Virus record (IMG/VR): IMGVR_UViG_2713896799_000013
Strand: one strand, 5' to 3'
Source of the DNA: a virus
Lineage: Duplodnaviria; Heunggongvirae; Uroviricota; Caudoviricetes
DNA length: 36,212 nt
In this document: positions 17,745 to 20,700 of the stretch, in pieces
Layout of the letters: each line of letters begins with the position of its first letter
How positions within the stretch are numbered: position 1 is the first letter of the stretch
Position numbers: made by a program

Positions 17745-20700
17745 GCCTGCTGAGCTAAGTCGACATTGCTTCCTCGGATGTGAGATGAAATACATCTGAA
17801 ATGTAATGCACCTTTCTCTCGAAGTAACCCAATAATACGGGAAGTTAACATTAATTCATTAGCTTATTGTGCAGTGATTTAATTATCTGCCAACGTAACT
17901 ATTTCACCCGCAGTATGCTCAAAACGTTCAGACTCAAGTTCAACGCTTAACGCCATGCCCCCAAGTGCCAGCGCTGCTTTTATTATGGAGCCTGATCCCA
18001 TGAAAAAGTCGGCAACCAAATCTCCCGGACGCAAACAGAATGCGCTCTGTTGCCGGGAAATACGCCCGCAGGCTTTCCTTGTTGCACCCGTTCCAGCGCC
18101 CGGACAGCTTCGCCCAGATAATGTGGTTCAGCACATTAAAGCGCTCACGCATCATGATTTCGATATCAGATGCCAGGCGATGACCACAGAACAGGTAAAG
18201 ACTTCCGGCGGGTTTTAATACCCACCAGAACTGCGCCAGACACTGATCCAGCCATTTCAGGTAATCATCGTCGCCCTTCCACTGGTTATCCCAGCCCTCG
18301 GGCTTCACTTTAAAGTATGGCGGGTCTGTGACTATCAGATCGACAGAGTTTTCCGGTAAGGTCTGGATAAATTCCAGGAAATCAGCGTTGATTAACTCGC
18401 AGCTGGATATTTTTACAGTATTAGCCATAGATCAATAAGCACTTCTCTGATAGGCTCATACCGCTTTTGCGCAAAGCAGATGGGCCTGAGGTTTGCTTGT
18501 GACCCCAACGCATGAGCAGATGGCTGGCAGGTGCCGCTAACACCCACCAGCCGCCCATTACCACAAATTAAAAAGCCTTCACTGCGGAAGGCGTCTGTAA
18601 CAACCGAACTGATAATCTGCCAGACCCGCCATAACAAGCTGAGTCAGTATTAACTGGCAGCGCTCGCGTGAAAGGTAAGTATTCTGCGCAATCTCCCCGA
18701 CGGTCGCCGGTTCGGTGACGCTTAATTCATTAAACACCACTCTGGCGGTTTCGGTCATATCCTGCTGTTTTAGCATGTCTTTTTCCCTTTTCTGGTTAAC
18801 GTGACATACCAATAACTCTTGTCGAAAAAGCCAGCAAGCAGAAAGACCAGTATTAATAACCACCAGCACATTTAACGCACTGCGCTACTTTGCGGGCACA
18901 AAAAACCCGCTCAGAGGAGGCGGGTTCAGGCTATGCGGTGAAATAACCACTCTTAAAAGCATACATGATTTTTTACGTACGTAAATGCTTTGCCGTGCAT
19001 ATTTTTCATGCAAATGTCACATACTGCTATTTTTCAGTGTTATAAATTTAAAGCCATAGAAAAAATCAATTATGTTTTAAGAATGGATAGGTAAAGAATA
19101 ACAAGTGACACAGATTCAGACCAAAATGGAAAAGGGTTGCCACCCACAAGCGCCCACTCCACATCCATGACAATCCATACACAACACCAGATAACGTGGC
19201 AAATAATACAAGTAAAGCACCACCTGAATAGTGATAAAAACCAAACAACAAAGACGCCACAATTAACGCAACCAATGGAGACGTCACTTCTGATAGCCGT
19301 GATTGAATATACCCTCTAAATAATGACTCCTCTGCCAGAGACACAAAAAACAAATTAGCCAATATAAACTCTGGCAACCACTCTGGAAAATGAATCTCTG
19401 GCTTTAACCCACCAAAAAAAACAGCCAAAAACAGGATAAGAGGAACAGAGAGCAACAGAGCCCCCCATTTCCACAAAGACACTTCTGATTTTACTTCTTT
19501 TTTAAACAAAGAAGCTGTACACAGGACTAACAAAAATGGCACCAGCGCTTTATCAAAATTAAAATACATTGTATAGGGAGTGCTTTGAGGTCCGACAGTG
19601 ACAGACTTTAGCACTACAGGATTGTGAAACCCTGGCCATAAATGAAAAGATAATGCTATGGCTGATAAAACTATGCCAGCTTCATATATGGATTTAGCCC
19701 AGGCGTTATATTTCCAGTTGAACTTCAAAATAATAAAAAAAACGATTGTAGCAACAAAAAACAACACCGGCCAATCAATAATATCATTAAGCACAGCCAG
19801 GACAACAGACACCGTCAACAATGAAAAAGCCACTACCTTATGCCAACTGAGAGTTGACAGTGACAGTGCTAACACAATCCACATAAACACTCCTTTTATT
19901 TAATGATGAAGATTGATTATCAATATTTTCAATTCACCTGGCAACATTTTGTTTACCTTCCATAAAATTCATGACCATCAAAAAAATAAACATATTAATT
20001 ATAAACACAGAAAACATAACCCTCGTCACTATATATCCCTACCGCATATCCATATCTAACCGGACATTCAGAGCCATAAGCATTCCTTCAATAATACCTT
20101 CAGCTTTATAAAGTCTTTTACCAATAAGCCCATCAGAACATCTATGCTTACGTGCAAGAGCCATAAATGTCATTCCACCTACGTAATAATCGACCAACAA
20201 ATCGTGCAAATACTGATTATTCTTGTTTAATCGTGCCATACAGCCACAAATTATCATGGCGTCATCATCAGAACACTGAGGACGTGATTTCACTTTAGTT
20301 GGGATTAATCCTTTAAAACCAGCAGCTATCGAGGACCATGTTACATCTTCATGATTATTTGCTGCCCATGCTCCCCACCGCTCCATAACCAGCTGAATAT
20401 CACGCAACATCATTACATCCTCTTATTACGAATATATTCACGCCCAGTCGCCCACCGCAAACAGGCAGACCATGCACAATATTGATTTCATCAAACTGCT
20501 CGTCGTCTATAAGCAGCCCCGCATGTGTCAGCGCATCCAGCAGTGCTTTCAGGATATTGTCCAGGTCACGACGGCGCTTATCCGGTGGATCTGCAATAAT
20601 CTTTATCGCCAGCCTTCCGGACAGGTTTAATTTCAACCGCTGCTGGCGAACAATGAGCACCACATCACGGCGATAACGCTCACCGGCTTTTGATACAAAA

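Follow-up and report, generated by a model that had tools for sequence, protein, structure and literature searches.

Several described proteins frame what a CPBP (Rce1-type) intramembrane glutamic protease may do in a bacterial cell. The 'Abi' immunity proteins of Gram-positive class II bacteriocins, such as PlnI and SkkI, are CPBP precedents for a role in immunity. In Escherichia coli, McsI, a protein of 216 amino acids (aa) from the CAAX-protease family, alone gives immunity to microcin S, and this is the only CPBP function demonstrated there. The prevailing view of SpdC of Staphylococcus aureus is that of a scaffold, without catalytic activity of its own, for a glucosaminidase. It is also established that prophage cargo genes can encode exclusion proteins of the inner membrane. 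Here we describe a CPBP gene in the IMG/VR virus record IMGVR_UViG_2713896799_000013, a stretch of 36,212 nucleotides (nt), referred to as the window, which represents a lambdoid E. coli prophage whose genes run on the minus strand. The gene is intact (19066-19884, minus strand) and lies directly after the late antiterminator gene Q, upstream of the predicted late promoter pR', in an interval that recurrently holds anti-phage defence genes in related phages. The gene has been annotated before and was studied once, and its protein adds a new, so far uncharacterised member to a known superfamily. What is new here is the corrected anatomy of the locus, a history of single capture and the Q-to-pR' hotspot.

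The minus-strand open reading frame (ORF) spans 19066-19890, and the original prediction had read it as a CPBP membrane protease of 274 aa. The start is almost certainly the ATG at 19884, because an AGGAG lies 5 nt upstream of it, all homologs begin with MW, and the Prokaryotic Genome Annotation Pipeline (PGAP) uses the same start. The protein is consequently 272 aa long instead of 274, and its description as a CPBP membrane protease with all three motifs holds. The Rce1-like profile PF02517 matches residues 171-260 with 71.4 bits (cut-off 22.4, E 8e-20), and PGAP labels the gene 'CPBP family intramembrane glutamic endopeptidase'. Three complete genomes match the studied region at 100% identity, and many others do so at 95-100%.

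We aligned the window protein with 15 homologs from many genera and found that all three motifs are retained on proper alignment. Residues E185, E186 and R190 (EExxxR), F214 and H218 (FxxxH), and H253 and N257 (HxxxN) are invariant in 16 of 16 sequences. In the structural model, the first motif locates to the helix of residues 170-200, the second to the helix of residues 203-216 and the loop after it, and the third to the helix of residues 246-263. The model displays a polytopic helical fold, as had been expected of this protein, and it resembles SpdC and Rce1, solved members of the superfamily. These two were found by fold comparison alone; a sequence search of the PDB with the CPBP protein gave no match. 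From the intact catalytic residues, we predict that the protein is proteolytically active.

Besides the motifs, we notice a conserved segment at residues 81-117 (about 19534-19644 of the window), with the pattern H81..PGFxN88..G98..S101..Y107-x-N-x-DKA..PF117. It falls outside the Pfam core, in the stretch that separates helix 3 from helix 4, where the model places short strands and helices. The segment is invariant in the 16-sequence alignment and specific to the CPBP subfamily of the window protein; it may serve as a substrate-binding or gating element. The whole gene is under purifying selection. The ratio of non-synonymous to synonymous substitution (dN/dS) between CPBP alleles is 0.12-0.29 across protein divergence from 3% to 45%, up to saturated synonymous distance.

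At the locus, Q (20039-20413, minus strand) is the upstream neighbour of the CPBP gene and forms the left border of the cargo slot, with 154 nt between the end of Q at 20039 and the CPBP start. It is a late antiterminator of the phage 82 / H-19B / DLP12 QuuD type (PF06530, E 3e-51), and its protein is 82-85% identical to H-19B Q and QuuD. On the downstream side, past the CPBP stop at 19066, homology points to an 82-type late promoter pR' at 18958-18985 (minus strand), with the -35 element TTTACG, a 16-nt spacer and the -10 element TATGCT. It is followed by a putative initial transcribed region with a Q-loading / sigma-dependent pause element, TAAGAGTGGTTATTTCACC, at 18937-18955 (minus strand), which has a single exact copy in the window. 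Sequence and predicted folding then indicate an intrinsic terminator tR' (AACCCGCC...GCGGGTT followed by six T) at 18900-18926 (minus strand).

The predicted pR' of the window is homologous to TTTACG-16-TATCAT of H-19B. In H-19B, this promoter overlaps the 3' end of Q and is followed by AGAGTGGTTACATTGCC and, about 30 nt on, by an intrinsic terminator. The published pR' of phage 82 has an extended -10-like sigma-dependent pause element, with GCC at +15-17 and a pause at +25. The H-19B copy, TGGTTACATTGCC, agrees with these features, and the window copy, TGGTTATTTCACC, has the element without GCC. Five phages share TAAGAGTGGTTA and the terminator unchanged, with Q proteins that have 47-82% identity to the window Q, and tR' is conserved in H-19B, phiP27, SfV and Stx2 phages, being an annotated terminator in SfV. 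We assign pR' by homology and by agreement with the published features, not by mapping.

With pR' assigned in this way, the CPBP cassette is placed between Q and pR', outside the late-transcribed stx slot. The original prediction had put the gene directly after Q, in the slot of late-promoter-driven morons such as stx; the adjacency to Q is correct, and the slot is not that of stx. A role as Q-dependent late cargo like stx is rejected for the same reason, since pR', the pause element and tR' (18900-18985) all lie downstream of the CPBP stop. In an Stx2d phage and in PhiR5_1, about 40 nt separate Q from the start of the late element, which in H-19B follows Q directly; after it, the Stx2d phage carries a small ORF, an intact methyltransferase gene, tRNA genes and, last, stx2. 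In Stx2 phages that share this backbone, stx likewise comes only beyond these genes. The late element lies downstream of the CPBP gene in the window and also with the alleles of 85%, 63% and 60% identity. Placement of the gene in the late slot, downstream of a late promoter and terminator, is apparently confined to an allele group of 55% identity, which has a lambda-type Q.

The cassette carries the mark of insertion expected of a moron in the strict sense: Q and pR' are 1.1 kb apart here, compared with 6-41 nt in 27 viral loci and close adjacency in H-19B and Stx2d phages, and the GC content is deviant (0.35-0.39 versus 0.49 for the window). The cargo is AT-rich, as had been claimed, and Q is AT-rich too (0.41). 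A strict moron also has its own terminator. No terminator is present between the CPBP stop and pR', and the first one for any CPBP transcript is tR'.

In the Q-CPBP spacer, we observed a sigma-70 promoter-like site, TTGCCA-17-GATAAT (19916-19944, minus strand), which lies 31 nt before the CPBP ATG with a scan score of 10/12. It is kept in the 97%, 86% and 85% alleles, within the best-conserved stretch of the spacer, and we propose that it is the cassette's own promoter. Transcripts of an ortholog in uninduced cells have been reported in the literature; our evidence for an own promoter is the conserved site, which 5-10% of shuffled sequences equal in score. A candidate for a strong consensus promoter ahead of the 60% allele was rejected, as its spacer is 19 nt and it failed the scan criteria. 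Because of this failure, we keep the promoter argument weak.

Between an 82-family Q gene and its late promoter lies a hotspot for cargo, in which defence genes recur. Scanning IMG/VR for the pause element gave 119 loci, 103 of which have an 82-family Q gene upstream. In 27 of these 103 loci, the pause element comes 6-41 nt after the Q stop, and in the other 76 it comes 528-3014 nt after it. The occupied gaps contain at least 25 unrelated gene sets with a GC content of 0.31-0.42. PADLOC matches among the cargo include PD-Lambda-1 (L22 of phiP27, E 2e-89), the KAP NTPase of PDC-S20 over its full length (E 2e-176), KwaB of Kiwa (E 3.5e-150), adjacent to a small membrane partner, NsnA / PD-T4-2_A (E 6e-45), the OLD-like ATPase-Toprim protein HEC-04 (E 2e-36), PDC-S42 (E 4e-27) and the HNH protein of PDC-M68A (E 7.5e-27). 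A metallo-beta-lactamase-fold protein has weak PADLOC matches. Ten other cargo proteins matched nothing in PADLOC, and nine of these ten are also without a Pfam domain. Three quarters of the sampled phages with this type of late promoter carry 0.5-3 kb of AT-rich cargo, which makes the gap a source of defence candidates.

The CPBP cassette is present in 572 of 5426 complete E. coli genomes (10.5%), almost always in single copy, and all 572 genomic copies cover at least 80% of it. The carriers that we sampled are mostly Shiga toxin-producing or enterohaemorrhagic E. coli (STEC/EHEC) of the types O157:H7, O55:H7, O145, O111 and O26. The cassette is also found in 44 prophage-derived IMG/VR contigs. 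Among phage-borne alleles down to 55% identity, Q adjoins the gene wherever the neighbourhood is readable: alleles of 60-100% identity follow an 82-type Q, and that of 55% identity a lambda-type Q. In this latter allele group, the gene comes after a promoter-terminator pair and just upstream of a holin gene. In E. albertii, only tRNA genes and non-coding DNA lie between the CPBP gene and the holin gene.

Full-length homologs with 44-56% identity occur in 80 species-representative genomes of other Enterobacterales, where no phage gene lies within 5 kb of them. These chromosomal orthologs have no conserved operon partner, and their neighbours are unrelated housekeeping genes. The 80 species-representative loci that were kept include no E. 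coli record. In a neighbour-joining tree, the chromosomal genes follow taxonomy roughly, whereas the phage-borne alleles form one clade with a bootstrap of 92/100, within which the subclade linked to the 82-type Q has 100/100. At synonymous sites, Q and the CPBP gene diverge in step. The simplest history is that a lambdoid phage captured a chromosomal enterobacterial gene once and that the gene has since stayed beside Q for a long time. The original prediction had named, as grounds for its refutation, homologs that are ordinary host proteases unrelated to phages, and this is half the case: most of them, at about 50% identity, are ordinary chromosomal genes, but the phage-borne ones make up a separate clade that is always beside Q. 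The locus offers a clean case of gene capture, in which a vertically inherited chromosomal membrane protease is kept beside Q across deep divergence.

Kiwa, PD-Lambda-1 and other defence genes occupy the slot elsewhere, and the position of the CPBP gene there, ahead of the late promoter, suggests that it protects the lysogen from phages or peptide toxins. By analogy with this cargo, we tentatively favour a protective inner-membrane protease that is expressed in the lysogen, anti-phage exclusion or abortive protection being its most likely role. The gene would be transcribed in the lysogen from the sigma-70 promoter in the Q-CPBP spacer and, during lytic growth, would also be read by early-operon transcription through Q. 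The transcript would end at tR', because no terminator lies between the gene and pR'. The protein would enter the inner membrane as an 8-helix bundle, in a predicted orientation, and its site of Glu-Glu/Arg, His and His/Asn would cut a peptide segment that has entered the membrane. As related phages hold known anti-phage defence genes in the same slot, we assume that the substrate belongs to an invader; a membrane-inserting DNA-injection protein of a superinfecting phage would be the most likely one. The outcome would be exclusion of the invader or abortive protection of the lysogen.

It is possible, although rather unlikely, that the CPBP gene is an unrecognised single-gene determinant of anti-phage exclusion or abortive infection and that the Q-pR' gap is a rich, uncatalogued defence hotspot. 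If this were true, the protein would be the first protease of its superfamily shown in phage defence, present in about one in ten E. coli including major EHEC serotypes. The many unannotated cargo genes of the gap would then be further defence candidates.

A number of observations weigh against protection of the lysogen from phages. The strongest is the ancestral chromosomal gene, which is syntenic, vertically inherited and housekeeping in appearance: 32-39 of 79 species share the order modE-modF-CPBP-(gal)-gpmA-aroG. The genera with this modF/gal-gpmA synteny include Providencia, Photorhabdus, Xenorhabdus, Serratia, Hafnia and others. The gene is absent by tblastn from all 50,697 deposited phage genomes, with two weak Listeria fragments as the only matches, and its carriers may mostly be defective prophages that are seldom recovered as free phage. 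The window prophage itself may be defective in lysis, as it carries an IS1 and no homolog of the two holins used as queries was detected. No PADLOC-DB 2.0 family matches the CPBP protein at E values up to 0.1, and a literature search gave no paper that ties a CPBP protein to phage defence. The only phenotype published for the gene lies in host-cell signalling and not in phage biology. Statistically, the promoter call is weak, since 26-52 of 500 shuffles score as well in such AT-rich DNA. Finally, the hotspot location of the gene is circumstantial: most other cargo is antisense to Q, and no function is assigned to several of its genes.

Among the other explanations, immunity to a membrane-active bacteriocin or microcin ranks second, and we regard it as unlikely. 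The protease would here degrade or neutralise a peptide toxin of competing enterobacteria, as the precedent of McsI in E. coli allows. The intact catalytic motifs and the expression in the lysogen fit this role, a hotspot of conflict genes could equally hold immunity genes, and a chromosomal copy across many genera fits resistance to a widespread toxin. The neighbourhood speaks against it. In the window, Q, pR'/tR', the small ORF and the methyltransferase remnant around the gene include no bacteriocin, exporter or leader-peptide gene. The other phage-borne loci, which were screened for phage markers (Q, RusA, DUF968, holin) and not for bacteriocin genes, show holin or tRNA genes after CPBP. 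A tblastn search against 72,556 plasmids returned chromids, mislabelled replicons and distant homologs, and its only Escherichia match is a mislabelled EDL933 replicon. Because it gave no genuine Escherichia match, the CPBP protein is not close to a plasmid-borne immunity gene.

An effect on envelope or signalling proteins of the host bacterium, with indirect consequences for virulence, ranks third and appears more doubtful still. It draws on the published work on the EDL933 allele, whose protein is 97.1% identical to that of the window, with the same Q-CPBP arrangement and with published primers that match the window. Jandu et al. (2009) reported that expression of this ortholog rises 2.7-fold with HEp-2 cells, that it is transcribed in uninduced cultures, and that a deletion mutant lost the block of interferon-gamma-induced STAT-1 phosphorylation. 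In later RNA sequencing, the gene is expressed, at a level 3-13-fold lower in adhered than in planktonic STEC. Such differential expression, the concentration of carriage in EHEC/STEC lineages, the housekeeping appearance of the chromosomal orthologs and the closest solved fold, that of SpdC, which acts via a partner enzyme, are all consistent with such an effect.

On the other hand, complementation was partial and so was the effect of transfer to HB101 (Jandu et al., 2009), and the enrichment in STEC may merely mirror their load of lambdoid prophages. The same laboratory later identified the inhibitor of the STAT-1 pathway as a secreted protein, and the title of its 2012 article in Infection and Immunity names Shiga toxins as inhibitors of interferon signalling. 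A polytopic inner-membrane protease cannot directly be the secreted STAT-1 inhibitor. Jandu et al. (2009) treated the gene product as a possibly released protease and a virulence factor; the CPBP fold, the position relative to pR' and the hotspot were unrecognised, and the partly complemented phenotype has had no follow-up. The only published role, that of a virulence factor that blocks interferon signalling, rests on a partly complemented mutant and misfits an inner-membrane protease.

That the captured host gene is a mere passenger, without a role under selection in the prophage, is very unlikely. The chromosomal origin would allow this, as would the many carriers that may be defective prophages. 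Against it, dN/dS stays at 0.12-0.29 at every level of divergence, the catalytic residues are all kept, the 572 genomic copies are near full length, and the gene has been kept beside Q across two unrelated Q families. A function in the lytic cycle, in which the protease would process or time a holin, antiholin, spanin or other membrane protein, is suggested by the constant place beside Q and by the holin gene that follows in the 55% allele group and in E. albertii, and it is the least probable of all, since the gene lies upstream of pR' and outside the late transcript in the window and in the 85%, 63% and 60% alleles, many fully functional phages, H-19B and Stx2 phages among them, have nothing in the slot, every deposited phage genome lacks the gene, and the ortholog is transcribed without induction.

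A 65-aa ORF at 18579-18776 (minus strand), downstream of the late element, had been proposed as a small partner of the CPBP gene with a helix-turn-helix-like domain. The ORF is present; its winged-helix signal is weak and below the cut-off (TrmB, E 0.003-0.007). It belongs to phrog_331, a common phage family; SfV, phiP27 and many Stx2 phages carry it and have no CPBP gene. The sequence beyond the late-promoter element was long enough to assess in 108 viral loci; the 65-aa ORF follows the element in 52 of them, and the CPBP gene is present in 5 of these and absent in 47. In turn, the 85-86%, 60% and 55% allele groups, including E. albertii, have CPBP without the ORF. A two-gene module of CPBP and the 65-aa ORF was rejected on this co-occurrence. 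All 33 loci that carry the methyltransferase have the ORF upstream of it, and the ORF belongs with the methyltransferase in the late-operon backbone, not with the CPBP cassette. It may act as a controller of the orphan methyltransferase. PADLOC gave no meaningful match for the small ORF and two neighbours. A terminator-like hairpin at 18570-18592 follows the ORF.

The N6/N4 DNA methyltransferase itself is a remnant at 17879-18428 (minus strand), with PF01555 on its N-terminal part. It had been described as frameshifted, and its two remaining pieces are in different frames. The defect is more than a simple frameshift: compared with the intact gene of the Stx2d phage, which encodes 352 aa, about 160 codons (residues about 139-300) are deleted.

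Further downstream, the window has an equivalent of the stx slot at 16089-17267 (minus strand), beyond tRNA genes at 17611-17764. It contains a 180-aa ORF (phrog_5091) and a TerB-like protein (PF05099; phrog_632, 'tellurite resistance'), and no PADLOC model matched either of them. The IS1, with its InsA and InsB ORFs, is inserted at 14855-15552 (plus strand), between the lysozyme gene (13839-14372) and the TerB-like gene. Two holins were used as queries, the class II holin of the prophage in record GB089 and the L017 holin, and neither has a homolog in the window, which is collinear with the GB089 record only in part. A toxin ORF of the Doc (death-on-curing) type, at 22223-22717 (minus strand) upstream of the DUF968-RusA-Q block, is a further conflict or addiction gene of the window prophage. 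At the corresponding position, the GB089 record has Doc-type and Hok/Gef-type toxin genes annotated.

Compared with the described systems, the window protein shares the superfamily fold and differs from each of them in a particular way. Rce1, the type II CAAX prenyl endopeptidase of Methanococcus maripaludis (4CAD), is 17% identical to it, and the window family has the extra segment 81-117; we know of no prenylated CAAX substrate in bacteria. SpdC (LyrA) of S. aureus, solved in the SagB-SpdC complex (6U0O), is the closest fold at 14% identity. Unlike SpdC, the window protein has invariant catalytic residues, and its gene has no conserved partner. McsI of E. coli G3/10 protects from a peptide toxin as a single CPBP-family gene and is a plausible functional analogue; it sits in a microcin operon with toxin and exporter, whereas the window gene has no such neighbours. 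The PD-Lambda-1, Kiwa and PDC-S20 cargo consists of unrelated proteins, mostly on the opposite strand and recognised by PADLOC, unlike CPBP, and it shares with the CPBP cassette the same insertion site, a similar AT-rich composition and a similar size. The chromosomal CPBP orthologs of Enterobacterales are stand-alone genes, at modF / gal-gpmA in about 40% of the sampled species. They have the same motifs, the same family-specific loop and the same length as the window protein, and beside them the phage-borne alleles form a clade of their own.

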